From Armatimonadia bacterium (GTDB lineage Bacteria > Armatimonadota > Zipacnadia > Zipacnadales > UBA11051), in contig JBDKRC010000224.1 in NCBI GenBank assembly GCA_039683575.1, positions 1-34,599 on the forward strand: a DNA stretch of 34,599 bases, in the 5' to 3' direction. How positions within the stretch are numbered: the stretch's first letter is position 1; the number at the start of each line of letters is the position of its first letter. A model generated the notes under the pieces. That model was given only the letters and a program-made list of their open reading frames with translations, was not told the DNA's origin and ran no database searches. Shown piece by piece: positions 1-34,599 of the stretch. The translations under genes were made by a program, and so were the position numbers.

Positions 1-361
1 TTGCGGGCGTTACTGCCCGCACTACGCGGTGAGACTGTTGGGCGGGGGCTTGTACCCCGCCGGCCTCTATCACCGACGACGATTGCGCCGGGGTACGAGC
101 TCCCGCCCCACAGAACGTGGTGATCTCCTCCCCCGGCGGCAACAGCGCCAGCAGGTTCGCCAGCACCGTGCTCTTCCCCGCGCCACCCGGCCTCGCTGCC
201 GTTAGGAACGACGCGCCGTGCGCGATGGACGTCCAGCAGTATGCCACCAGCTCCGCCGTCATCGTCCCCGCCTCGATCAGGTCCACGAAGCTAAGCGTCC
301 GCCCGCCCCGCTGATTGAGGCCCTCGATCTCCCGCAGGTTGTGTGACTGCAATTGGTCCAT
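1..361 (-). CDS. P-loop NTPase, type II/IV secretion ATPase-like (VirB11/CpaF/FlaI-like); N-terminal part only, runs off the window edge
   Basis: Not in the ORF track because there is no stop in the window. Manual translation from ATG 361 (GGAG 6 nt upstream): MDQLQSHNLREIEGLNQRGGRTLSFVDLIEAGTMTAELVAYCWTSIAHGASFLTAARPGGAGKSTVLANLLALLPPGEEITTF... Walker A (ARPGGAGKST) sits in the LSxxDLIxxGT...LLxxIP context typical of secretion ATPases. The frame stays open to position 2. Confidence 0.75.
   Translation of the reverse strand, partial: MDQLQSHNLREIEGLNQRGGRTLSFVDLIEAGTMTAELVAYCWTSIAHGASFLTAARPGGAGKSTVLANLLALLPPGEEITTFCGAGARTPAQSSSVIEAGGVQAPAQQSHRVVRAVTPA
36..112. repeat. 77-nt palindromic element (family A), inside the P-loop ORF
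   Basis: tgttgggcgggggcttgtaccccgccgg...ccggggtacgagctcccgccccaca; same length as, and similar along its length to, 29383-29459. Confidence 0.9.
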
Positions 362-406
362 ATGACGCTCCGTGCGGCCGTAGCCGTATCCACTCTATCC
401 GTATCC

Positions 407-489
407 GCTGTAGGGCGGGGGCTCCGTACCCCGCCGGCCGTCATCTACGGCTTCCCGAGCGGCGGGGTACGGAGCCCCCGCCCTACAGC
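407..489. repeat. Palindromic element (family A), intergenic, perfect 30-bp arms
   Basis: 407-436 gctgtagggcgggggctccgtaccccgccg is the exact reverse complement of 460-489. Confidence 0.95.
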
Positions 490-552: not shown

Positions 553-1788
553 ATGAGCAACTCCTCGCCCCAGCCAATCCTGCTCTCGCCCACCGGCCAT
601 CCTGTCGCCTACATGCGGCTCATGATCGCGTCGGTGCTTTGCATGGTCATGTTCGGTGCCGTGCAGGTCATGCCTACCGTCTGCCTCGATGCCCTCGGCC
701 GCGATATGTGCCTGAACTTCGAGCAGCGCGGCTTCCTCATCGCGATCCGCATGGCGGCGCTGACCGCGTGCCTGCTCGTGGTCGGCCACTTCGGCGAGCG
801 CCCCGGCAAACGCTTCATCCTCTTCGTAGGCCTCGCCGCCATCTCCGTCGGCCAGATCATGGCCGCTCGTGCCCCCGGCTATTCCGTCCTGCTCGCCGCC
901 TTCATCGTCTCCGGCCTCGGCTATGGCGTCGTCGAAGCCTACCTCAACCCCATCGTCGCCCAGCTACACCCGCACGGTTCCGCCCGCGCGCTCAACATCC
1001 TCAACGGTATCTTCTCCCTCGGCCTCGTCCTTGGCGCCCTCACCACCGGCGAGATGCTGCAGGCCGGCCTCGGCTGGCGACTGCCCTTCTGGGTCTGGGT
1101 CCTGCCGCCACTGGTCATCGGCATCCTGTACCTGACGCCTCACTACCCCGCGCCAGTGCATGGCTCCGACGATGTGCGCCCGACCCCCGACGTCCGCCGC
1201 TTCATCAGCCTCCCGCTGTTCTGGGTGCTGTTCGGGGCCATGATCCTCGGCGGCGGCTGCGAAGCCGGCCTCACCAATTGGGCCCCCAATTACGTCGCTG
1301 AAGTCCTAAAAGCCACCGCCCGCGGCGGCGCCTGGACCACCATCCTCTACGGAACCTTCATGGCCGTCGGGCGCCTGGGCAGCGGCCTCGTCGTCTCGAA
1401 GACCGGTGCGATAAAGCTGATGGTGCTCTCGGCCATAGCCTGCGGTGTCGTCACCGCCGCGCTCACCTTCGTGCCCAGCATGTTGGTGGCGTGGGTGCTA
1501 TTTGCTCTCAGCGGCCTCTTCGTGGCCTGCTTCTGGCCGACGCTGCTGTCGATCGGCTCGGATCAGATCGCCCCCGGTTCCACCTCGCTGCTGTCCTTAC
1601 TCGGCGCCGCGGGCGTCAGCGGCTGCGTCATCGTCCCCTGGGCCATCGGTGCGCTCGGCGACCTCTTCGGCCTCCGCCTCGCCATGCTGGTATTGCCGAC
1701 TTCGATGATTCTGCTGATCATTCTCCTCGCCACCGCCGCCGGCATCGTCCACCGACACAAGAACGGGACTAACGAAAATGGGGACTGA
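553..1788 (+). CDS. MFS transporter (FucP/TsgA-like sugar permease)
   Basis: About 12 hydrophobic segments, motif-A-like GHFGERPGKR, ALNILNGIFSLG, GGCEAGLTNWAP. The ORF-track start at 343 would read through the palindrome, so ATG 553 is preferred. Confidence 0.88.
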   Translation: MSNSSPQPILLSPTGHPVAYMRLMIASVLCMVMFGAVQVMPTVCLDALGRDMCLNFEQRGFLIAIRMAALTACLLVVGHFGERPGKRFILFVGLAAISVGQIMAARAPGYSVLLAAFIVSGLGYGVVEAYLNPIVAQLHPHGSARALNILNGIFSLGLVLGALTTGEMLQAGLGWRLPFWVWVLPPLVIGILYLTPHYPAPVHGSDDVRPTPDVRRFISLPLFWVLFGAMILGGGCEAGLTNWAPNYVAEVLKATARGGAWTTILYGTFMAVGRLGSGLVVSKTGAIKLMVLSAIACGVVTAALTFVPSMLVAWVLFALSGLFVACFWPTLLSIGSDQIAPGSTSLLSLLGAAGVSGCVIVPWAIGALGDLFGLRLAMLVLPTSMILLIILLATAAGIVHRHKNGTNENGD

Positions 1789-1859
1789 CACCACTTTCGC
1801 AACCTTCCCTGCCTAACACAGAAAAGCCTCATGCAAAAATGGTGTCTGTCCCCATTTTC
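1774..1859. repeat. Inverted repeat pair (GGGGACTGACACC / GGTGTCTGTCCCC type)
   Basis: 1774-1800 vs 1833-1859: 24/27 reverse-complement match; the MFS stop codon lies in the left arm. Confidence 0.8.
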
Positions 1860-13323: not shown

Positions 13324-13496
13324 ACTGCGCAAAAGGGGGGCTTAGTTGCGCAAACGAAGTTAACCAATGTAACGATTCGGGCCGGAATTAGGCCCTAACA
13401 GGCTTGGATTGCAATGGTATGAAGTGGTGAGTGAACGGGTGGGCCCGATGGGCGACGAGACTGCTCATTCTGCCCCCTCGTATCGCTCCGAACAGT

Positions 13497-13573
13497 TGTC
13501 ATTCTGAGCGAAGCGAAGAATCCCCGTGATGGTATGAGATCCTTCGTCGCGAACGACGCTCCTCGGGATGACA
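13497..13573. repeat. TGTCAT..GAGCG / CTC..ATGACA palindromic repeat (family C)
   Basis: tgtcattctgagcgaagcgaagaatc...gatccttcg...ctcgggatgaca; second copy at 33778-33862. Confidence 0.85.
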
Positions 13574-20254: not shown

Positions 20255-20302
20255 GAGAGCTTTACAGGATGTGCAGGATAACGGCAAGGATGGGGAGGAT
20301 GA
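20255..20302 (+). repeat. CAGGAT-periodic element (family D), copy 1
   Basis: gagagctttacaggatgtgcaggataacggcaaggatggggaggatga. Confidence 0.85.
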
Positions 20303-20326
20303 GGCGGGGAGGACAGGACAGAGAAA

Positions 20327-20355
20327 TCGCGCTCTGGTGAGCGCTCCTACAGGCG
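20327..20355 (-). repeat. REP-like hairpin, family B
   Basis: tcgcgctctggtgagcgctcctacaggcg. Confidence 0.75.
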
Positions 20356-20395
20356 GCGGTAGCGGCATTGCCAATAGGTTTGCGGGAGGTTTGTT

Positions 20396-22672
20396 ATGAG
20401 TGAGCAGGGACGATTTGATATAGCGTTGGAGAATGGGGCCGTGGTGCGGGTTCAGGTGGTTTTGCCGCAGGTGTTTCGCGTGAGGATGCGGGCGGATGGG
20501 GAGTTTGAGGAGCCGGGTCTGGTGCGGTATGGGGTGGTGAAGAGTGAGTGGCCGGAGGTGCCGGTTAGCGTCACGGGCGATGACGGGGTGCTGGTGTTTG
20601 ATACTGGGGAGGCGCAGCTTGAGGTGTCGAAGTTGGATGGGCGCGTGGCGCTGTATGGGGCGGGAGGGGAGGAGGTGCTGCGGCAGGTGGAGGCGCCGGT
20701 GTCGGAAGGGGATGAAGGAGGCTTTCGGGCGGAGTTTGGGCTGGCGGATGGGGTGCGGCTCTATGGGCTGGGGGATGAGACGCGGGACCGGATCAACAAG
20801 CGCGGGCACAAGACGCAGATGGTGCTGCGCAATGTGGTCAGCTATGTGCCCATCCCGTTTCTGATGAGCACGGGGGGCTGGGCGATCTTCATGAACAGCA
20901 CCTGGTTCCACCAGCTTGACCTGGGGGCGACGGTGGCGGATCGGCTGGTGTATAGCGCTCGGCGGGGGGAGTTGGATTACTACTTGATCGCGGGGGAGAC
21001 GTTGCCGGTGTTGCTGGACCGCTATACACAGGTGTCGGGGCGGCCCGTGCTCCTGCCGCAGTGGGGGTATGGGCTGACTTTCGTGTGCGATGAGCGCGGG
21101 GTGCGGGCGCGGGATGTGCTGTATGAGGCGCTGGAGTTCCGGCGAGAGAAGGTACCGTGCGACTTGATTGGGCTGGAGCCGGACTGGATGGAGACACGCT
21201 ATGACTTCAGCGTGGACAAGCAGTGGAGCACGGAGCGGTTCCACCAGCCCTTCTGGAAGCAGCACCAGGAGCCGGGGGGATTTGTGGCGGGGCTCAACAA
21301 CATGGGGTTCAAGCTGAGTCTGTGGTTGTGCGTGGATTATGATGTTAGTGAGTATGAGGAGCAGATGGTGCGGGAGAATGATGCCACAGACGGATCGCGC
21401 TCGGGGGAGCGCTCCTACCGGGAGACGGAGGAGGATCGGTATGACGAGGATATCATCAAGGACCCGCATTTCGTGCCTTCGTACCAGGATAAGATCACGA
21501 AGCGTGGGGAGCCGTGGTTTGAGCATCTGAAGAAGTTTGTGGACAACGGGGCGGCGGCGTTCAAGCTGGATGGGTCGAACCAGATCTGCTTCCACCCGGA
21601 CCGCAAGTGGCTCAACGGGATGGATGATGAAGAGATGCACAACCTGTACCCGGTGCTGATGGCCAAGCAGATGGCGCATGGGTTCCGGGACCACACCGGC
21701 AAGCGGGCGATGATCTATACGGCGGGCGGCTATGCTGGGACGCAGCAGTATGCGGCGACGTGGGCGGGGGACACTGGCGGCGGGCAGAAGCCGCTGGTGT
21801 GTACGCTGAACCACGCGCTGTCGGGGCACTCGAACACGAGTTGCGACATGCAGGTCTGGAACGTCGAGGGGATTCACTTCGGGTTCCTGCAGGCGTGGTC
21901 GCAGGTGCTGTCGTGGCATATGTATAACCAGCCGTGGTTTTTGAAGCCGGAGATATATGAGGTGTTCAAAAGCTATGCGCGGCTGCGTTACCGGCTGTTG
22001 CCATACCTTTACTCGATGGCGCACGTGGCGGCGCGGACGGGGATGCCGGTGGTGCGGCCGATGCCGCTGGTGATGCCGGAGGACCCGCGGTGTGATGAGT
22101 TACTTAGCCAGTACATGCTGGGCGAGAGCTTCCTGACGTGCTCGTTCACTAACACGATCTACTTGCCCGAGGGCCGGTGGGTGGATTACTGGACCGGCGA
22201 GGGGTATGAGGGTGGGCAGGAGATCGAGTATGCGGTGCCGGAGGGGAAGGGCGGGCCGCTGTTTGTGAAGGCAGGGGCGATCATCCCGACGTGGCCGGAG
22301 ATTGACTACGTGGGACAGCGGGCGATGGAGACGGTGGGGTTGGAGGTGTATCCGTGGGAGGATAGCCGCTTCACGCTATATGAGGACGATGGGGAGACGT
22401 TTGGCTACCTGGAGGGCAAGGTGGCGACGACGGAGGTGGAGTGTCAGGCCGAGGCGGGGAGGGTTGTGGTGAAGGTCGGGCCGCGGGTCGGGGACTATGA
22501 GGGGAAGTCGGAGCGGAGGGTCTGGGAGGTTGGGGTACATCTGGAGGGGCGGCCGTCGCGGGTGACGGTGGACGGGGCGGACGCGGAGTGGGCGTGGGAG
22601 GAGGAGGGGACGGGGGCGCGGGCTATGGTGGAGGAGAAGGCGGAGGGGGTTGAGGTGGTGTTGGAGGGTTAG
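20396..22672 (+). CDS. Glycoside hydrolase family 31 (alpha-xylosidase/glucosidase-like)
   Basis: LYGLG, SYVPIPF, GRPVLLPQWGYG, FKLDG (nucleophile), HNLY, TWAGD, LRYRLLPYLYS, QYMLG, LYEDDG. Confidence 0.93.
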   Translation: MSEQGRFDIALENGAVVRVQVVLPQVFRVRMRADGEFEEPGLVRYGVVKSEWPEVPVSVTGDDGVLVFDTGEAQLEVSKLDGRVALYGAGGEEVLRQVEAPVSEGDEGGFRAEFGLADGVRLYGLGDETRDRINKRGHKTQMVLRNVVSYVPIPFLMSTGGWAIFMNSTWFHQLDLGATVADRLVYSARRGELDYYLIAGETLPVLLDRYTQVSGRPVLLPQWGYGLTFVCDERGVRARDVLYEALEFRREKVPCDLIGLEPDWMETRYDFSVDKQWSTERFHQPFWKQHQEPGGFVAGLNNMGFKLSLWLCVDYDVSEYEEQMVRENDATDGSRSGERSYRETEEDRYDEDIIKDPHFVPSYQDKITKRGEPWFEHLKKFVDNGAAAFKLDGSNQICFHPDRKWLNGMDDEEMHNLYPVLMAKQMAHGFRDHTGKRAMIYTAGGYAGTQQYAATWAGDTGGGQKPLVCTLNHALSGHSNTSCDMQVWNVEGIHFGFLQAWSQVLSWHMYNQPWFLKPEIYEVFKSYARLRYRLLPYLYSMAHVAARTGMPVVRPMPLVMPEDPRCDELLSQYMLGESFLTCSFTNTIYLPEGRWVDYWTGEGYEGGQEIEYAVPEGKGGPLFVKAGAIIPTWPEIDYVGQRAMETVGLEVYPWEDSRFTLYEDDGETFGYLEGKVATTEVECQAEAGRVVVKVGPRVGDYEGKSERRVWEVGVHLEGRPSRVTVDGADAEWAWEEEGTGARAMVEEKAEGVEVVLEG

Positions 22673-22678
22673 GAGAGG

Positions 22679-22724
22679 GAGCTTTACAGGATGGGCAGGA
22701 TAGAGGCAAGGATGAGCAGGATGA
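22679..22724 (+). repeat. CAGGAT-periodic element (family D), copy 2
   Basis: gagctttacaggatgggcaggatagaggcaaggatgagcaggatga, ending 12 nt before ATG 22737. Confidence 0.85.
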
Positions 22725-22736
22725 AAGGCAAGCGCT

Positions 22737-25700
22737 ATGAAACGGCTGATTGCGGTCCTGATAGTGCTCATGGGAAGTGTGGCGGCGATTGCACAGGGAG
22801 AGGTTAAGGCCTATAGGCCGGGGCCGGTGCCGCCGGATGGGGAGCTGCGGTACTGCATTCAGTATGGGAATGTGGACGCCGAGTTGTTGGGGTTTCTGCA
22901 GCGGTCGCGGGTGAATTTCCTGCACTGGCATGGGCCGTTCTCGGGGTACAACGGGCTGGAGCCGCGGAGTGAGTTGGCGAGGCTGACCAAGTCGGCCAAG
23001 CAGACCATTGATGCGGCCCATGCGGCGGGGATGGCCTGCATCCTGTACATCGGGCCGTGTTTCAGCTATGGCGACAAGGACAAGCGGACGCTGCTGTTTG
23101 AGTTCTATGACAAGCGCTGGGCGCAGTATGAGGACTACTTCGGCAAGAAGCCGGGGGACCTTTTGGAGATGGCACAGTGCAATGTGGAGGGGAAGCCGCG
23201 GCCGTATGTGTATGAGCGGCAGGAGGGGTACCATCTGTGTGTGAACAGCCCCGGGGTGCGGCAGATGACCAAGGGGCTGATCCGGATGATCGTCGAGGCG
23301 GGGGGCGACGGGAGCTTCTATGACGGGCCGTATGTGACCGAGGGGCGGTGCTACTGCAAGTGGTGTAAGGCGAAGTTCCGGGAGTGGCTGAAAGAGACGT
23401 ATACGGCCGAGGAGTTGCGGACGCGGCTCGGGGTGACGGATCTCGCTGCGGTGGAGCCGCCGAAGTCGGCCAAAGAGAAGCTGTGGGTGCCCTTCCGGCG
23501 GTTCAATGCGTGGAGTCTGCTGGACTTCATGCGGGACACGAAAGCGTACGGGCGGTCGCTGAACCCGCACTATATCATGACCTCGAACTACTGCATGTGG
23601 AGGGGGGAGCCGTTCTCGCCGATACGGGGAACGGCGGAGGATGCGGAGGTCGAGAGCCAGGTCGTGGATGTGCTGTTTGATGAGGCGAGATACGGGGCAG
23701 GGCCGCGGTGGGAGAGCGGGCGGATCAGCAACTCGACGGACTATCGACACTTGCTGGCGGCGGCGCAGGGGGTGCCGGTGGCGCTTCTGAAGACCGCGCC
23801 GGAGGGGACGAACCCGGAGGCGGGTGGCAACCTGACGCGGCTGGCAATGGCGGAGGGCGCGGCGAACGGCGGGACGTGGCAGCTTCACCGGCTCAAGCCG
23901 GCGGCGGCACAGGGGGCGGAGGAGTATGGGCAGTTCCTGGCGGGGCGGCAGGAGGCGCTGACGCGGTGCAGACCGTGGGCGACGGTGGCAATCTGGACGT
24001 CGGCGACGCAGGCGTACTATGATCTGCCGACATATCCGACGGCGGTGTCGCGGTACCTGGCGGATAGTCACGTGCCGCACAAGTTCGTGATTGACGCGGA
24101 GGTCGAGAAGGGGAAGTTGGGGGCGTATGAGGTCTTGATCGTGCCGGAGGTGGCGGTGATCTCGGAGAGGCAGCTTGCGGCACTGCAGGCGTTTGCGAAG
24201 CAGCCGGGCAAGCACGTGATCCTGATTGGGCCGTGCGGGCGGCTCGACGAGTGGGGGGAGAAGCGCGAAGAGATCAAAATCGCGGGGGCGGGAGTCTTAC
24301 CTTCAATGGCCTTGCCGCAGTCGCCCAATGAGGGACTGAATGCGGCGGATAAGGAGAAGCTGAAGGGGCTGCTGCCGCTGATGCAGGAGCTGACGAAGCA
24401 GTGGCTGCCGGCGTGGGTGGCGGCACCGGAGGGGCAGGTGGAGGTGACCACCGGGTATGACGGCAGGGGTAAGCTGCTGGTGCATGTGGTGAACTATGGG
24501 GTAGAGATGACAGGGAGTCTGCGGACGCCGAAGGACGTGCTGGTGCGGGTGAGGCTGCCGCAGGGCATGACGGCAAAGACTGTGCCAGACCAGGGACCGA
24601 CGGGGGCGAAGTTGTATACTCCCGAGCAGCCCAAGGGGAGGCCGCAGGCATTCGAAACGGTGCGCCCGGGGCCGGAGGAGTATGCCGAGTTCCGGCTGGA
24701 TGAGCTGGGGATATACAGCCAGGTGGAGTTTGACCTGGCGCCAGAGAGGCGTCCGGTGGCTGACAAGACGCGGCTGGTGACGAAGGTGGAAGGGGAGGCG
24801 GCGCCGGGGGCGACGGTGGTGATTGAGGCGAAGCTGGAGCCGGCGGCGAAGGGGCAGTGGTGGATCAGCCCCGGTGGGGGATGGCAGATCGAGCAGGCGG
24901 ACATGCCCGGAGGTAAGCGGTATACACTGAAGCTGGGTGAGACTATTGGGGATGGTTACACCGGGCCGCAGTTGTCGGTGCGGCTGCCCAGCGGCAGGCA
25001 GTTGACGCAAATGGTGTGGATGCCGGTGCAGGCGCCGTTTGAAATGGGGATGCGGACGCCGGCGTTTGCTGATATGCTGACGGGACGGACGCGGCTGGCG
25101 GTGACCGTGCGCAGCCGGCTGCCGGTGGCGGCGGAGGGGGCGCTGACGGTGACGCCGCCGGAGGGCTGGGCGGTGGAGGGGCTGCCGGCGACGGTGAGTC
25201 TCAAGCCGCAGGCGAGCGAGCAGGTGGTGGGATGGCTGAGGGCGCCGACGGGAGTGAAGCCGGGGGCGTATGAAGTGGCGGCGACGCTGACTGTGGGGAA
25301 GAGACGGGCGGAGGCGACCGCGACGCTGAGCGTGGCAGACAACATGAAGGCGTTGCAGTGCCGCAAGACGGCGGCGGCGCCGGTACTCGATGGAACCCTG
25401 GACGAGGAGTGCTGGAAGCAGGCGACAGTGGTGACGGACTTTCAGCGCACCGACGGCAAGGGCAACGCGAAACAACAAACCGTGGCTCGTGTTTGCTATG
25501 ATGAGCGGAGGCTCTATATAGCATTTGAGTGTTTGGAAAGCGAGCCGGAGACGATCATCAACCTGGTCGAGCAGGACGGCGGGGAAGTGTGGCGGGATGA
25601 CTCGGTTGAGGTGTTCGTGGACCCGGGGTTGACGCGGCGGGGAGTACTGCACTGGACGTGCAATACGGCGGGGAAGAAGTCGCCGGCAAAGGGGTGGGAA

Positions 25701-25913
25701 GCGGCGGCCAAGCGGACGGAGCGAGGATGGAATGTGGAGATGGCGCTGCCGATTGGGGACTTGAAGCCGCAGGTTGGCGAGATGTGGGGGATCAACCTGT
25801 GCCGCACGAGGCCGTCAAGGCCGCAGAACGAGCCGGAGTACAGCGCGTGGTCGTTCACGCCGGGGGCCTTCGCGAAACCGGAGCGGTTTGGGGTGCTGGT
25901 GTTTGGGGAGTGA
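22737..25913 (+). CDS. Secreted multidomain GH42-like protein with trimerisation, NEW3-like and CBM9/DOMON-like domains
   Basis: Signal peptide; DGSFYDG..CYCKWCKAKFREWL; YEVLIVPE; LLVHVVNY; PPEGW; PVLDGTLDEECW..LYIAF..DSVEVFVD. Confidence 0.7.
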   Translation: MKRLIAVLIVLMGSVAAIAQGEVKAYRPGPVPPDGELRYCIQYGNVDAELLGFLQRSRVNFLHWHGPFSGYNGLEPRSELARLTKSAKQTIDAAHAAGMACILYIGPCFSYGDKDKRTLLFEFYDKRWAQYEDYFGKKPGDLLEMAQCNVEGKPRPYVYERQEGYHLCVNSPGVRQMTKGLIRMIVEAGGDGSFYDGPYVTEGRCYCKWCKAKFREWLKETYTAEELRTRLGVTDLAAVEPPKSAKEKLWVPFRRFNAWSLLDFMRDTKAYGRSLNPHYIMTSNYCMWRGEPFSPIRGTAEDAEVESQVVDVLFDEARYGAGPRWESGRISNSTDYRHLLAAAQGVPVALLKTAPEGTNPEAGGNLTRLAMAEGAANGGTWQLHRLKPAAAQGAEEYGQFLAGRQEALTRCRPWATVAIWTSATQAYYDLPTYPTAVSRYLADSHVPHKFVIDAEVEKGKLGAYEVLIVPEVAVISERQLAALQAFAKQPGKHVILIGPCGRLDEWGEKREEIKIAGAGVLPSMALPQSPNEGLNAADKEKLKGLLPLMQELTKQWLPAWVAAPEGQVEVTTGYDGRGKLLVHVVNYGVEMTGSLRTPKDVLVRVRLPQGMTAKTVPDQGPTGAKLYTPEQPKGRPQAFETVRPGPEEYAEFRLDELGIYSQVEFDLAPERRPVADKTRLVTKVEGEAAPGATVVIEAKLEPAAKGQWWISPGGGWQIEQADMPGGKRYTLKLGETIGDGYTGPQLSVRLPSGRQLTQMVWMPVQAPFEMGMRTPAFADMLTGRTRLAVTVRSRLPVAAEGALTVTPPEGWAVEGLPATVSLKPQASEQVVGWLRAPTGVKPGAYEVAATLTVGKRRAEATATLSVADNMKALQCRKTAAAPVLDGTLDEECWKQATVVTDFQRTDGKGNAKQQTVARVCYDERRLYIAFECLESEPETIINLVEQDGGEVWRDDSVEVFVDPGLTRRGVLHWTCNTAGKKSPAKGWEAAAKRTERGWNVEMALPIGDLKPQVGEMWGINLCRTRPSRPQNEPEYSAWSFTPGAFAKPERFGVLVFGE

Positions 25914-25921
25914 ACAAGGCA

Positions 25922-25959
25922 TACAGGATGTACAGGATAACGGCGGATGGGCAGGATGG
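25922..25959 (+). repeat. CAGGAT-periodic element (family D), copy 3
   Basis: tacaggatgtacaggataacggcggatgggcaggatgg. Confidence 0.85.
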
Positions 25960-26015
25960 GAGCGTAGGACGTTGTGGATGAAGCAGGGCGTATAGGATGA
26001 AAGATATGATGATTG

Positions 26016-26912
26016 ATGAGCAGTAGTACTCGCGGCATGTTGGTGATGGTCTTGTCGGCGGTGTTCTTTGCCCTGATGGCGGGGCTGGTGCGGGGCATGG
26101 AGGGCACGAGCGCGTATGTGATGGTGATGGCGCGGTTTGTGATTGGAACGCTGGTGTGCGTGGGGTTGTTTGCAGTGGGGTTGGACCGGCCGCGATGGAC
26201 CAACTGGCCGTGGATCATCACCCGGGGCGTGGTCGGCGGGGTTGCGGTTGTGATATTCTACTGGACCATCAAGGACATCGGTCTCGCCAAAGCGACAATG
26301 CTGAACTACACGTACGTGGTGTGGGCGGCGGTGGTGGCGGTGCCGCTCTTGCACGAGCGGCTGGGGATCATGCACTGGTTAGCCATCGCTGTGGCGCTGC
26401 TGGGGATTGTCCTGCTGTTCGATGTGCGGGAACTCTCGGTGGGGTATGGCGAGGCGTTGGCGTTGTTTGGCGCACTGTGCAGCGGCGTGGCGGTGATTTG
26501 CGTAACGCGGTGCCGGGAGACCGACAGCTCGACCAACATCTTCTGGTCGCAGTCGCTGTTCGGGATCGGGCTGGCGGCATGGCCGATGACGCAGCAGTGG
26601 GTGATGCCGACGACAGGGCAGTGGGCGGCGCTGGTGGGTATCGGGCTGCTCGCGGCGGTGGGGCAGTTGGCAATGACATATGCGTACAAGCACACCGGGG
26701 CCACGCAGGGGAGCCTGCTGAGTCTGGTGACGCCGGTCTTGAGCGCGCTGATGGGGGTGCTGTATTTCCATGAGGCGTATAACGCGGGGTTTGTGATCGG
26801 GTCGGCGCTGATTCTGGGGGCGTGTGGGTATATGGCGGTCTATCCGGTGGGGAAGGGTGGGCTGGAGAAGGCTGGGGAGGAAGATGAGAGCTTTACAGGC
26901 TGTACAGGATAA
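26016..26912 (+). CDS. DMT/EamA family transporter
   Basis: About 10 TM segments in two halves; ARF, ATMLNYT, LHERLG, AYK. Confidence 0.92.
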   Translation: MSSSTRGMLVMVLSAVFFALMAGLVRGMEGTSAYVMVMARFVIGTLVCVGLFAVGLDRPRWTNWPWIITRGVVGGVAVVIFYWTIKDIGLAKATMLNYTYVVWAAVVAVPLLHERLGIMHWLAIAVALLGIVLLFDVRELSVGYGEALALFGALCSGVAVICVTRCRETDSSTNIFWSQSLFGIGLAAWPMTQQWVMPTTGQWAALVGIGLLAAVGQLAMTYAYKHTGATQGSLLSLVTPVLSALMGVLYFHEAYNAGFVIGSALILGACGYMAVYPVGKGGLEKAGEEDESFTGCTG

Positions 26913-26932
26913 CGGCAGGATGGGGATGATGA
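26886..26932 (+). repeat. CAGGAT-periodic element (family D), copy 4; overlaps the EamA stop codon
   Basis: gagagctttacaggctgtacaggataacggcaggatggggatgatga. Confidence 0.85.
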
Positions 26933-26972
26933 GCTGGGATCGTATGGCGAAGGGCGGGTTTGGGTGCCAGCT

Positions 26973-27076: not shown

Positions 27077-29005
27077 ATGCCGCTGATTAGCGTTGAGAAC
27101 TTGACTAAGTACTACGGGACCGAGCTGATGCTGGATCATGTGTCGTTTGCCATTGATCACCGGGAGAGGCTGGGGTTCATTGGGGCGAATGGGACCGGGA
27201 AGACTACGCTTTGCCGGATACTGCTCGGCCAGGAGCAGTATGAGGATGATTCAAAGATACATATCGCGCGGGGGACGACGATTGGGTACCTGTCGCAGGA
27301 TGTGCGGTTCCATGGGGCGGATACGCCGTGGGAACTGGTGATGTCGCTCTTCAAGGACCTCAAAAAGCGCGAGAAGCGGATGGCTGAGGTGACCGAGCGG
27401 ATGGGGGCGGAGGGGGTCGATGACGAGGAACTGCACCGGCTGCTGGATGAGCACGCGCGGCTGCTGGAAGAGTTTGAGCGGCACGGCGGGTATGACTATG
27501 AGCACCGGGCGGCGGGGGTGCTGACGCGGGTGGGGGTGCCGGAGGTGGACTTCCACCGACCGCTGGCGAGCTTCAGCGGAGGCGAACAGCGGCGGGCGGC
27601 GCTGGCGAAGCTGCTTCTTGAAGCGCCTGACCTGTTGCTGCTCGACGAGCCGACGAACCATCTCGATGTGCAGGGGATCGAGTGGCTGGAACAGTACCTG
27701 AGAAACTACCCGGGCGCGGTTGTGGCGATCTCCCATGACAGGCGCTTTCTGGATTCCGTGGCGCAGAAGATACTGGAACTCGAGGCCTGTGATCTGACCG
27801 AGTATCACGGGGGGTACTCGGACTACATGAAGCAAAAAGAGCAGCGGCTCATGGTGTATGAGCGGCAATATGAGCGGCAGCAGCAGGAACTGAAGAAGCA
27901 GATGAGCTTCATCCGGTGGGCACTGGCGACGCAGCAGGAGAAGCGCGTGAAGGCTGCCAAGAGCAGGCTGAAGCTGCTGGACAAGACGGAGTACCTGGAC
28001 CCGCCGCTGAACCAGCGGCGCAAGATGAGCATCCGGTTTCAGCCGAAAGTGCGCGGAGGGAACGAGATACTGCTATTGGAGGGGCTGGGGAAGCAGTACG
28101 GGGGCAAGCGGCTGTTTTCGGGGCTGGACCTGCTGGTGCGGCGTGGCGAACGGGTCGGGGTTGTGGGGTCCAACGGGACCGGGAAGACGACGCTTATCAA
28201 GATTGCGCTGGGTCTGGAGACGCCCAGCGAGGGGACGGCGCGGCTGGGAAAGAGCGTGGAGGTGGGGTATCACCGGCAGGAGGAGTTCGGCCTGGACCCC
28301 AACAACACCGTGTTGCAGGAGTTCGGGACGGTGCTACCGGATGCCGATACCGCGGAGCTGCGGAGTCTGCTGGCGCGGTTCCTGTTCGTGGAGGATGATG
28401 TCTTCAAGCGAGTCGGGGACCTGTCGGGCGGCGAACAGAGCCGCCTGTCGCTGGCGAAGCTCGTGATGACGCGGCCGACGCTGCTGGTGCTGGACGAGCC
28501 TACCAACCATCTGGACATCGACTCGCGGAATGCGCTGGAGGGGGCGCTGAAGGAGTACGAGGGAACGATCCTGGTTGTCAGCCATGACCGTTACTTCCTC
28601 GACGCGGTGGTCAATCGGTTGATCCTGCTCACCGAGGGTGCGGCGGTTGTGCACGAGGGGAACTATAGCTCGTACATGGCCAAGAAGGCGGCGCTGGAGG
28701 CCGAGGCCGAGAGGCTGGTGCAGGAAGAAGCGGAGGTGGCCCGCCAGGAGCGGCTGCGGCAGGAGAAGCTGGCGCGGAAGGCCAAGCGCGAAGCGGCGGA
28801 GAGAGACGGTGGGCCGAAGCTGACGCCTGAGGAACTGGAGGCGCGGGCGTACGCGCTGGAGGACTCGATCAGCCGGATCGAGGGGATACTGGGGGAAGCG
28901 GCGACATACGAGAACCCGGCGCGAGTGGCGGCGCTGAGCGCTGAGCACCAGAAGCTGAGCGAGGAACTGGAGCGGGTGTATGAGCTTTGGGTGGAGGAGG
29001 AGTGA
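27077..29005 (+). CDS. ABC-F family ATPase (Uup/YdiF-like)
   Basis: Two NBDs (GANGTGKT/FSGGE/LDEPTNHLD and GSNGTGKT/LSGGE/LDEPTNHLD), no TM segments, C-terminal coiled coil. Confidence 0.96.
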   Translation: MPLISVENLTKYYGTELMLDHVSFAIDHRERLGFIGANGTGKTTLCRILLGQEQYEDDSKIHIARGTTIGYLSQDVRFHGADTPWELVMSLFKDLKKREKRMAEVTERMGAEGVDDEELHRLLDEHARLLEEFERHGGYDYEHRAAGVLTRVGVPEVDFHRPLASFSGGEQRRAALAKLLLEAPDLLLLDEPTNHLDVQGIEWLEQYLRNYPGAVVAISHDRRFLDSVAQKILELEACDLTEYHGGYSDYMKQKEQRLMVYERQYERQQQELKKQMSFIRWALATQQEKRVKAAKSRLKLLDKTEYLDPPLNQRRKMSIRFQPKVRGGNEILLLEGLGKQYGGKRLFSGLDLLVRRGERVGVVGSNGTGKTTLIKIALGLETPSEGTARLGKSVEVGYHRQEEFGLDPNNTVLQEFGTVLPDADTAELRSLLARFLFVEDDVFKRVGDLSGGEQSRLSLAKLVMTRPTLLVLDEPTNHLDIDSRNALEGALKEYEGTILVVSHDRYFLDAVVNRLILLTEGAAVVHEGNYSSYMAKKAALEAEAERLVQEEAEVARQERLRQEKLARKAKREAAERDGGPKLTPEELEARAYALEDSISRIEGILGEAATYENPARVAALSAEHQKLSEELERVYELWVEEE

Positions 29006-29010
29006 GCATC

Positions 29011-30144
29011 ATGAAGCTGGGAGCAGAGCTTCGCGAGGCGATTGAGCGACAGATTGAGGCGGGGGAGATACCGGGTGGCGTGGTGCTTGCGGGGCGAGGT
29101 GGGGAGGTCCTCTGCCACGAGGCGGTGGGGGAGCGGATGGTGGCACCGGAGCGGCGGCCGATGGAGCCGGACACCCTGTTTGATCTGGCGTCGGTGACCA
29201 AGCCCGTGGCGACGGCGACGGTGGTGATGCAGCTAGTGGAGGAAGGGCGGCTGGAGGTTGAAGGGCGAGTGTGTGAGTGGGTGGACGGGATTGATGAGCG
29301 GGTTACGCTGCGGCATCTGCTGACACATTCGTCGGGCTTGCCGGCGCACAAGAACTATATGCTCGAGTGGGGGGGGACGGACTGTAGGGCGGGGGCTTGT
29401 ACCCCGCCGGTCGTTATCACCGACGGCGCTCGCGGCGGGGTACAAGGCCCCGCCCTGCAGTCCGAGGAGCGGCTGGAGCAGGTGGTGGCCGATATCTGCG
29501 GGCTGCCCTTGCAGTGGGCGCCGGGGGAGGGGTTTGCTTACTCCTGTCTGGGGTACATCGTGCTGACGGCGGTGGTGGAGCGGGTGACGGGGGAGCGGCT
29601 GGACAGATTGGTGGAGCAGCGAGTGACGGGGCCGCTCGGGATGAAGGACACAGGCTTCTGTCCGGATGAAGCGCGGCGGGCGCGGTGTGCGGCTACGGAG
29701 CAGTTTCCTGAAGGGGTGCTGTGCGGGGTGGTGCATGACGAGAATGCGCGGTATCTGGGCGGGGTGTCGGGGAATGCGGGACTGTTTGCGACTGCGGGCG
29801 ATCTGGCGCGGTTTGTAGCGATGGTGATGGGCGGGGGGGAACTGGAGGGGGAGAGGGTGCTGGCGGCGGATACGGTGGAGACGATGACTACGCCGCAATC
29901 GCGGCTTGTCGGGGGAGTGCGGGGGCTGGGTTGGGACATCGACTCGACTTACTCGGCGGCGCCGCGTGGCGGGTTCCCCATGGCGAGCTTTGGGCATACG
30001 GGGTATACGGGGACGTCCATCTGGGGGGATCGGGCGAGTGGGGTGTTTGTGGTGCTGCTGACCAACCGGGTACATTTCGGACGGGAGAAGGACGTGAGCG
30101 CCTTGCGGCGTGAGGTGGGGGAGATTGTGGCGGAGCTTATCTGA
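29011..30144 (+). CDS. Serine hydrolase, beta-lactamase class C-like family
   Basis: FDLASVTK (SxxK), LLTHSSG, YSC, GVVHDENA, GNAGLF, GHTGYTG, LLTNR. Confidence 0.92.
   Translation: MKLGAELREAIERQIEAGEIPGGVVLAGRGGEVLCHEAVGERMVAPERRPMEPDTLFDLASVTKPVATATVVMQLVEEGRLEVEGRVCEWVDGIDERVTLRHLLTHSSGLPAHKNYMLEWGGTDCRAGACTPPVVITDGARGGVQGPALQSEERLEQVVADICGLPLQWAPGEGFAYSCLGYIVLTAVVERVTGERLDRLVEQRVTGPLGMKDTGFCPDEARRARCAATEQFPEGVLCGVVHDENARYLGGVSGNAGLFATAGDLARFVAMVMGGGELEGERVLAADTVETMTTPQSRLVGGVRGLGWDIDSTYSAAPRGGFPMASFGHTGYTGTSIWGDRASGVFVVLLTNRVHFGREKDVSALRREVGEIVAELI
29383..29459. repeat. 77-nt palindromic element (family A), in frame inside the serine hydrolase
   Basis: tgtagggcgggggcttgtaccccgccgg...cggcggggtacaaggccccgccctgca; read as CRAGACTPPVVITDGARGGVQGPALQ. 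Confidence 0.92.
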
Positions 30145-33777: not shown

Positions 33778-33862
33778 TGTCATCCTGAGCGCGGAAGTCC
33801 GCGTCCGCCAAGCGAAGGATCTCTCCCCACGCTGCAGATTCTTCGCTGCGCTCAGAATGACA
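33778..33862. repeat. Palindromic repeat family C, copy 2
   Basis: tgtcatcctgagcg...gcgaaggatct...agattcttcgctgcgctcagaatgaca. Confidence 0.85.
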
Positions 33863-33877
33863 ACCCTATAGCCGTCT

Positions 33878-33920
33878 CATCCTGCCCATCCGTCGTTATC
33901 CTGTCCATCCTGACAAGCTC
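33878..33920 (-). repeat. CAGGAT-periodic element (family D), copy 5 (minus strand)
   Basis: Reverse complement reads gagcttgtcaggatggacaggataacgacggatgggcaggatg. Confidence 0.85.
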
Positions 33921-33937
33921 TTCCCGAGGCCACCAAC

Positions 33938-34384: not shown

Positions 34385-34599
34385 GGGGGCGCCTCTGTTG
34401 CACGCGGCGCGTTCCGCTGTAGGGCGCATCCGTTGCACGTGCGCCTCTGCTGTAGGGCGGGGGCTCCGTACCCCGCCGGCCGTTATCACAGACCATCGCA
34501 CAGCGCGGGCCTCCCTCCCGCCTGTCCCTGGGGATGCATCCGCTGCACGTGCGCTGTAGGGCGTAGCGACGTCTGCGTCGCAGGGGGCTCGTACCCCGC
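34385..34599. repeat. Cluster of GTAG-type REP-like hairpins, including a family-A half element
   Basis: tgtagggcgcatccgttgcacgtgcgcc; tgtagggcgggggctccgtaccccgccggccg (from 34451, identical to 409-440); tgtagggcg...gggggctcgtaccccgc at the window end. Confidence 0.8.

Follow-up and report, generated by a model that had tools for sequence, protein, structure and literature searches.

The left end of the DNA considered here raises the question of whether a bacterial open reading frame (ORF) that runs without a stop codon through two palindromes, and then off the end of its contig, is a decayed remnant or a working gene in which mobile DNA is translated. The window that we analyzed is the whole of contig C224 (JBDKRC010000224.1; 34,599 nucleotides [nt], window base 1 being contig base 1) from a metagenome-assembled genome (MAG) of an Armatimonadia bacterium, hereafter G000, which is 96% complete and comprises 352 contigs. 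On the minus strand, an ORF with an ATG at position 361 extends for 120 stop-free codons (361 to 2) and one further nucleotide up to the contig end. We consider it highly probable that this ORF belongs to a genuine gene for a small ATPase carrying a tolerated, translated, in-frame dimer of repetitive extragenic palindromes (REPs), the rest of the gene lying on another contig, C268. In what follows, P-numbered entries are database proteins and X-numbered entries are sequencing runs, while G001 to G004 are the related genomes compared, G002 being a sister species of G000 in the same genus.

The ORF and its Walker A motif, proposed in the initial annotation, are real. A GGAG sequence, read directly from the DNA, lies 6 nt upstream of the ATG, and the motif GGAGKST occupies amino acids (aa) 59 to 65 of the translation (167..187, minus strand); neither family alignment shows any variation at G60, G62, K63, or T65, and S64 is invariant in the first and conserved at 90% or more in the second. 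With residues 1 to 83 as the query, 252 proteins were retrieved at an E value of ≤0.001, typically 243 to 270 aa long and, where a source is named, from Armatimonadota or Planctomycetota. The best full-length match, P0002 (243 aa), is free of any insertion and is 95% identical to the window ORF (1..361, minus strand) over residues 1 to 84, and its homology to the window ORF ends exactly at Cys84 (window 110 to 112).

Immediately after Cys84, a 79-nt element (window 35 to 113; like the other REP features, it is listed without a strand) encodes codons 85 to 109, that is, the 25-codon peptide GAGARTPAQSSSVIEAGGVQAPAQQ. It is a dimer of two inverted GTAG-tagged units of a repeat family that we call family A, placed by the arm-profile matches at 34 to 66 (plus) and 113 to 85 (minus), by the alignment of copies, and by folding, the limits given by the profile search being 34 and 114. 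Head-to-head REP dimers of this kind are also termed REPINs. Both GTAG tags are degenerate in the ATPase copy (GTGG and GTTG), and the copy in G002 keeps one of them. Codons 110 to 120 (SHRVVRAVTPA) are the translation of a 34-nt GTAG hairpin (window 1 to 34), a second REP-type monomer with the stem TGCGGGC/GCCCGCA in which the contig ends. The order of the two elements, family A and then the GTAG hairpin, and the lack of stop codons through both were thus correctly described in the initial annotation, whereas the limits assigned there, 36 to 112 and 1 to 25, had to be replaced by 35 to 113 and 1 to 34. Folded as DNA, window 1 to 120 forms one long hairpin and one small one (−35.6 kcal/mol, z = −4.4, with none of 200 shuffled sequences as good). 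A canonical family-A dimer with 30-nt arms that are 100% complementary and 23 nt apart (407 to 489; inverted repeat I4, arm scores of 36.4 and 37.0 bits) sits between the two divergent genes, 46 nt upstream of the ATG of the ATPase gene. The window ORF is the 5′ part of a genuine gene, and the dimer is read within it as an in-frame insert.

The 34-nt monomer has no counterpart in the alleles of G002, P0066, and P0123. Its reading is CGCGTAGTGCGGGC, and it belongs to a second hairpin family whose core, GCGGGCGAGACGCCCGCACTACGCG, occurs in 171 copies at up to three substitutions. The exact composite of dimer and monomer was found once more, in contig C253, where it is intergenic and just upstream of a gene starting MANVLVLHGPNLN; this composite also holds the only exact 36-nt copy of the monomer module. 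The terminal 38 nt of C224 are identical to the C253 copy, and C224 stops at the last base common to both. As a separate observation, C63:16177-16417 is a tandem array of ~45-nt units made of the second hairpin family and a GCCCTACRG fragment, an instance of REP clustering.

The remaining 149 codons of the ATPase gene were found by tblastn with P0002 and P0066 at the start of contig C268 (bases 3 to 449, plus strand), where they read (C)DLAHEIGSGHWYGYIWG..., are open throughout, and run to a normal stop codon. This part is on public record as a separate protein, P0125 (149 aa), on a contig of 20,897 nt. The end of C224 leaves 1 nt and C268, which opens GC GAT CTC, begins with 2 nt (GC) before its first full codon, fitting the codon of an invariant Cys. 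Since window base 1 is contig base 1, the ORF ends there for technical and not for biological reasons: the gene itself is not cut short, and the assembly broke inside a repeat. Homology to the ATPase resumes past the window, both on C268:3-449 and in frame within the 262-aa protein P0123, which is not what the initial annotation expected of a simple pseudogene. Family-A arms are in fact common at such breaks; 56 of 305 are no more than 150 nt away from a contig end, where the expected number is 5.2 (~11-fold enrichment), and 41 of the 704 contig ends carry an arm. C224 itself stops in REP sequence at both ends, the far end having the family-A arm or arms at 34449..34599 (repeats D13 and D18). 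There, at window 34544 to 34599, a family-A arm is broken after GCTGTAGGGCG by the small hairpin GTAGCGACGTCTGCGTCGCAG and then resumes, a nested REP insertion in its own right.

The comparison with relatives places the same element at the same point of the gene in other assemblies. The closest relative, P0123, is a complete protein encoded on a 24-kb contig of another Armatimonadia MAG and a member of the 90%-identity cluster of P0066; it is 94% identical to the window ORF (residues 1 to 112) and 92% identical to the C268 part, and it reads ...EEITTFCGAGARTPTQSSSGIEAGGVPAPALQRRRCDLAHEIG... in one frame across the element. The insert peptide of this type of allele contains the stretches ...EEITTFCGAGAR... 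and ...APALQRRRC..., and in P0123, P0066, and contig C29 of G002, the element is followed by RRRC(D/E)LAHEIG.... P0123 and P0066 continue on both sides of it. In G002, the orthologous C-terminal part is on C29, a contig ending at the element's other edge, and the DNA passes from the element directly into CGG AGA CGC TGC GAA CTC GCG CAC GAG, encoding ...GGVQAPALQ and then RRRCELAHE; CGG AGA CGC is what follows the dimer in the sister alleles. Furthermore, a 404-nt contig from run X1 covers window 35 to 420 with 14 differences. The insertion-free allele is represented by a loose end in run X3 (...PGEEIVTCGEDAGEA...) and by P0002, P0003, P0004, P0126, and P0127, all without the element; the insertion-free relatives are 75 to 87% identical over the C-terminal part and 91 to 95% over the N-terminal part where measured. 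Generic Walker A pattern scans for the DNA of relatives returned at least 4 and at least 13 loci, from distant relatives only.

The elements of G000 and G002 have the site, the orientation, and the loop in common, with 7 differences over 78 nt, and the simplest reading of these sequences would be a single insertion before the two species split. In the C-terminal part, 34 of 447 nt differ between G000 and G002, with 18 synonymous and 12 nonsynonymous codon changes (crude ratio of nonsynonymous to synonymous rates, 0.22). Because of this excess of synonymous changes, we conclude that the gene stayed under purifying selection with the insert aboard. The insert peptide differs at 5 of 26 residues between the two species and changes no slower than its flanks. 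The earlier proposal that the protein may be altered or inactivated is not supported as far as inactivation is concerned, given the hypervariable loop in which the insert sits (see below), the intact insertion alleles in three other assemblies, and the 18:12 ratio of codon changes.

With regard to the host protein, an AlphaFold model of P0002 based on 21 homologues (mean predicted local distance difference test [pLDDT] of 90.6; predicted template modeling score [pTM] of 0.91) has archaeal GspE (2OAP; E value of 3.6e-15, template modeling score to the query of 0.75) and FlaI (4II7 and 4IHQ) as its nearest solved folds in Foldseek, with TadA/CpaF, PilT, and VirB11 scoring below these two. In agreement, the family profile matches FlaI residues 230 to 440 in the PDB (E value of 8.7e-13). 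A Pfam search of P0002 at an E value of ≤0.001 returned no family, including no match to T2SSE, and in NCBIfam there are weak FlaI and TadA matches around Walker A, that to FlaI reaching 34 bits where the cut-off is 550. Walker A is preceded by no more than 58 residues, and there is no N-terminal domain. On the basis of the model, the host protein is a stand-alone P-loop ATPase of ~245 aa with a FlaI/GspE-like catalytic fold. The VirB11-type assignment of the initial annotation thus holds at the level of the secretion-ATPase fold class (FlaI/GspE/VirB11) and fails at that of T2SSE/VirB11 family membership; we rejected filing the protein there, as it falls below the model cut-offs and has neither an N-terminal domain nor partner genes of a machine. 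Among the neighbors at eight related loci, in fact, no partner gene of a pilus, secretion, or archaellum machine was found, and no conserved operon partner either, the neighbors being mutually unrelated (MFS, TauE, GFO oxidoreductase, beta-propellers, APH kinase, ADH, HMGL, and PPIase).

The comparison with FlaI and archaeal GspE (4II7, 4IHQ, and 2OAP) shows Walker A, the catalytic-domain fold, and a His-box-like CLHAD motif in common, whereas the protein described here has only ~245 aa, lacks their N-terminal domain and a Pfam T2SSE match, and is encoded away from any pilus, secretion, or archaellum gene. In the profile alignment, the EEIVT (EEIxT) segment of the family aligns with KIVTIEDTPE of FlaI, whose IVTIED segment we take to be the Asp box. 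The motifs LAHE and CLHAD are invariant in the family alignments; the C.LAHE strand is likely the equivalent of Walker B and CLHAD that of the His box. The usual Walker B motif in ATPases of the secretion superfamily is GE, in place of which this family has LAHE, and the segment between Asp box and Walker B is much shorter than in FlaI, which is ~22 residues longer there.

The insert falls within this same segment. In the P0002 model, the insertion point corresponds to loop 83 to 92, between strand 79 to 82 (EEIT) and strand 93 to 100 (RCHLAHEI), and this loop is among the two blocks of 10 residues modeled with the lowest confidence (mean pLDDT of 71). The site adjoins the Asp-box-equivalent strand in the profile alignment to FlaI, so that its placement near the Asp box in the initial annotation was accurate. 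The distance from Walker A to AHEI is 41 to 49 residues in 89 of the 103 proteins measured among the 120 matches listed, a few of which carry other, longer linker inserts, and the linkers of 20 of 21 related genomic loci have 44 to 54 residues. The insertion site is the most length-variable loop of the family and connects the Asp-box-like strand to the Walker-B-like one. The complete allele P0123 is a net 19 aa longer because of the element; in its model, the core is the same (mean pLDDT of 88.1, pTM of 0.88) and residues 88 to 108 are unstructured (pLDDT below 50); the insert is thus predicted to be a disordered surface loop. We also observed that P0027, P0028, P0032, P0008, P0016, P0020, and P0010 have other extra segments in the same ATPase linker, and that three of them (P0027, P0028, and P0032) read VGRGLR.AP..., which resembles a family-A-like arm in the other open frame.

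Family A is widespread in G000, with 347 arm-profile matches in all, 82 paired elements, and 185 unpaired arms. The canonical copy consists of CTGTAGGGCGGGGGCT(C)CGTACCCCGCCGG, a loop of 12 to 40 nt, and the reverse complement; both arms read CTGTAGGGCGGGGGC..., and each has the GTAG tag and a small stem to itself, GGCGGGG/CCCCGCC. Of the 82 paired copies, 37 retain both tags. We screened for copies inside genes by requiring an open frame of at least 40 codons on each side of the element together with coding-like G+C content at third codon positions, a filter that the ATPase copy fails as a contig-end case. Sixty-seven paired copies have no spanning coding-like ORF, and 15 have one; 10 of these 15 ORFs contain Pfam domains, the other 5 being without a Pfam match, and in 8 of the 10, the element lies inside or between Pfam-matched segments. 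These eight encode two FGGY kinases, MutS, a beta-lactamase-family protein, an RluA-type pseudouridine synthase, a DUF6785 protein, a squalene-hopene cyclase, and an Fe-S/FAD oxidoreductase. In the remaining two, a Peptidase_C26 and a GT2 protein, the element is N-terminal to the Pfam match and possibly not part of the real coding sequence. With the ATPase copy, at least 9 of the 82 paired copies, roughly one in eight, are in frame inside recognizable genes.

The second of these copies in the window is at 29381 to 29461, where it encodes residues 133 to 160 (DCRAGACTPPVVITDGARGGVQGPALQ) of a beta-lactamase-family serine hydrolase (28987..30144, plus strand; Pfam PF00144, E value of 7e-72, the domain at aa 17 to 373 spanning the element), whose orthologues in G001 to G004 lack it. 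It forms an 82% direct repeat with the ATPase copy, in the same plus-strand orientation, and since the two genes are on opposite strands, opposite strands of the element are translated. This confirms the claim of two coding insertions with opposite element strands in the window; the further idea, that being free of stops in both orientations is a special property of the element, found no support. The only stop codon in family-A arms is the TAG within GTAG, which falls in a single frame of each strand, and the mean number of open frames out of six is 3.40 for the elements, as compared to 3.47 for length-matched segments drawn at random from the genome and 3.76 after shuffling of the elements. 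We therefore rejected the idea that the element is specially designed for open frames, whose number is at the chance level because of the 67% G+C content.

The copies inside genes do favor the left-arm frame C-R-A-G-A-R-T-P-P (10 of 11, against an expected fraction of 0.51, P = 0.012; 8 of 9 in the strict set, P = 0.039; 13 of 16 with all candidates, P = 0.022), a bias that is small and post hoc and that we regard as a lead only. Some of the host genes deserve separate mention. The two FGGY kinases (L041, C204:27150-27248, and L047, C95:19523-19601) are 35% identical and carry the element at the same position of FGGY_N, which points to independent insertions kept at one permissive loop. The mutS gene (L042, C298:12840-12920) has an in-frame family-A dimer between domains I and II (DCRAGARTPPAVITDHQSGGVHAPALQ), reminiscent of the excess of intragenic REPs reported for repair genes. 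Finally, in the squalene-hopene cyclase gene (L053, C22:4731-4894), the loop has grown into a tandem repeat (PPQPLPPTNQAA...), giving an in-frame insert of 55 aa.

Elements of this kind have precedents. Di Nocera, De Gregorio, and Rocco (2013, BMC Genomics 14:522, PMC3733652) describe GTAG and CGTC REPs lying wholly inside ORFs, with intragenic GTAG dimers encoding 20 to 30 aa, the highest GTAG count in Opitutus terrae, intragenic REPs in repair genes and pseudouridine synthases, and same-site insertions in recB; the inserts are argued there to occupy flexible loops. The likeness to family A, whose dimer architecture we checked against that text, extends to the GTAG tag with a GC-rich stem-loop, to head-to-head dimers foldable as one hairpin, to many copies that are mostly intergenic with a minority in ORFs, and to different REPs at the same site of homologous genes, recB there and the FGGY kinases and the ATPase here. 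Family A is thus a family of GTAG-REP dimers by its tag, its head-to-head stem-loops, and its many dispersed, mostly intergenic copies. It differs in its host, since Armatimonadia belong to a phylum not among the species named in the text available, in its sequence family, in an in-gene share of at least 9 of 82 paired copies, and in that no REP-associated tyrosine transposase (RAYT) gene flanked by family A was found. Beyond PMC3733652, we found nothing on intragenic in-frame REPs in the literature from 2013 on.

The REPIN-RAYT systems of Bertels and Rainey (2011, PMC3116915), in which REPINs are described as extragenic, share with family A the two inverted REPs and the nonautonomous, hairpin-forming unit of ~80 nt, and G000 does encode Y1 (IS200-like) transposases; the defining link, a RAYT gene flanked by the same REPs, was found neither for family A nor for the second of the hairpin families. 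The classic in-frame case is that of the Rickettsia palindromic elements (RPEs; Ogata et al. 2000 and 2002, cited through PMC3733652 and a 2024 review of MITEs, PMC10969869). Like family A, these are palindromic selfish DNA found in frame in numerous unrelated genes, housekeeping genes in their case, with extra peptides that seem compatible with both fold and function of the protein. RPEs, set apart here by description and not by sequence, are ~100 to 150 bp long and AT rich, occur in obligate intracellular alphaproteobacteria, and reportedly have nearly half of their copies in ORFs, compared to roughly one in eight for family A. Intragenic GTAG REPs and RPEs in working genes are therefore already known; what is new here is the host phylum, the sequence family, the unannotated mini-FlaI host gene, and the relatively high in-gene share.

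As for mobilization, G000 has seven Y1_Tnp genes (C168:442-780, C51:7083-7421, C331:37316-37654, C237:52338-52667, C102:9064-9342, C31:890-1150, and C338:4861-5124). In scans of the Pfam-matched segments (87 to 113 aa), four of the seven best matched the RAYT model NF047646, below its cut-off, and on either side of each gene there are copies of a palindromic high-copy family distinct for that gene, with ~16 to 96 BLAST hits per family. G000 thus seems to host many parallel REP/RAYT-type systems. By analogy with the GTAG-REP architecture, we infer that family A may be moved by a Y1 transposase of the RAYT type, through the mechanism reportedly at work in REPIN-RAYT systems, and the cognate gene could be missing from an assembly that is 96% complete and breaks at these very repeats.

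Taken as a sequence of events, a nonautonomous mobile palindrome, the family-A head-to-head REP dimer, would have inserted into the loop leading from EEITT to C.LAHE and, having no stop in the ATPase frame, would be translated as a disordered surface loop. The insertion would predate the divergence of G000 and G002 and would have been kept since then as tolerated, presumably neutral, selfish DNA; later, in G000 alone, the 34-nt REP monomer would have been placed directly behind the dimer. Several observations weigh against this account. Within 1.2 kb of the seven Y1 genes, there is no confident family-A arm or second-family hairpin, the sole family-A arm match being one of 16.6 bits near the C237 gene. 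No target-site duplication or clean empty site is definable, and adding the element to the P0002 linker does not yield the linker of the insertion alleles, from which the ERSGSSE segment is absent. The ratio of nonsynonymous to synonymous changes is 5:2 in the element against 12:18 in the flank, a trend toward a faster insert that is not significant (Fisher P = 0.21), and AlphaFold models cannot decide on enzyme activity with the insert in place. Above all, no contig, database protein, or read joins base 1 of C224 to base 1 of C268: the two ends have no exact overlap of 6 to 60 nt, the junction is on no other G000 contig, runs X1, X2, X3, and X6 aligned to window 1 to 420 gave no bridging record (X6 had no match), and protein searches with the C268 part gave one distant longer protein and four near matches, none with the extra monomer. 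If C224 and C268 abutted directly, the frame would be kept but the invariant Cys would become Ser; if instead the gap held the 10 nt of G002 (CGGAGACGCT), the 34-nt monomer would shift the frame and the G000 allele would be broken.

This last case leads to the view that the G000 allele is a recent pseudogene in which the dimer was tolerated and the later 34-nt monomer shifted the frame, leaving only the first ~120 codons correct, a view that we hold to be possible though on balance doubtful. Thirty-four is not a multiple of three, so that adding 34 nt onto the sister sequence CGG AGA CGC TGC gives a +1 shift, the start of C268 matches the second and third bases of the invariant Cys codon, and the monomer is missing from P0123, P0066, and G002. 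However, the 149 codons of C268 are fully open and 92% identical to P0123, even if a very recent frameshift would leave no other trace, and the frame would be kept if the monomer were 33 nt long (11 codons), ending at the stem ...GCCCGCA with its last A as the first base of an AGR arginine codon. It is scarcely credible that the element entered the ORF through an error of assembly in which the contig end was prolonged with a repeat copy belonging to another part of the genome. C224 does end in a repeat, its last 38 nt equal the C253 copy, and the MAG has 352 contigs, but G002 (C29), P0066, and P0123 carry this element, with an identical loop sequence, at the corresponding codon of the gene, the X1 contig has it in place as well, and P0123 and P0066 span both of its sides.

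It is also possible to hypothesize that the insert was co-opted, either as a selected peptide (C-x-A-G-A-R-T-P-P...G-G-V-Q-A-P-A-L-Q) or as a regulatory mRNA or DNA hairpin acting in pausing, mRNA stability, or phase variation, which we judge quite improbable. The left-arm frame bias among in-gene copies (10 of 11 and, in the strict set, 8 of 9), the element at one position of two FGGY kinases of 35% identity, and its presence or absence among ATPase alleles at 87 to 95% identity would agree with such a role. On the other hand, the host proteins of the in-gene copies are unrelated, the insert is predicted to be disordered, its peptide is no better conserved than the flanks, the frame count is small and post hoc, and recurrence at the same site is equally explained by selection sparing permissive loops. 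A related and hardly more probable proposal is that family-A dimers are preferentially inserted or kept in the C-R-A-G-A-R-T-P-P frame and at homologous loops of paralogues, the ATPase insert being a switch. If this were true, either the choice of transposition targets would be linked to coding sequence or selection would act on the peptide or the hairpin as a reusable module, and the gain or loss of the element, together with the G000 monomer, would switch an uncharacterized mini-FlaI ATPase. We favor the reading of a genuine ATPase gene with a tolerated, translated REP dimer.

The rest of the window bears other repeats and genes. Divergent from the ATPase gene is an MFS transporter gene (553..1788, plus strand; Pfam MFS_1, E value of 6.6e-34) that is not kept beside the ATPase gene in relatives. 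At its 3′ end, window 1774 to 1859 holds a 28-nt inverted repeat, 89% complementary and 30 nt apart, which starts AAAATGGGGAC and resembles the family flanking the Y1 transposase gene of C237. In addition, a 46-nt CAGGATG-rich repeat (D1) has four copies in window 20257 to 26933, with inverted partners (I2 and I12) near 33875 to 33921, and a 52-nt inverted pair (I1) lies at 13495 to 13546 and 33813 to 33864. The sequencing runs with parts of the window are labeled wastewater or bioreactor, with small shares (maximum, 0.24) from which we draw no habitat reading.

With these results, Armatimonadota join the groups in which REP-type selfish DNA is translated within working genes, here including those for MutS, an rRNA/tRNA pseudouridine synthase, and two sugar kinases. 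Elements such as these break MAG assemblies in the middle of genes, so that intact genes can look truncated or missed, and the insert alone is no ground for annotators to call a pseudogene. Moreover, the host ATPase is a conserved, unannotated mini version of FlaI/GspE without a Pfam family, and it may merit a study of its own.

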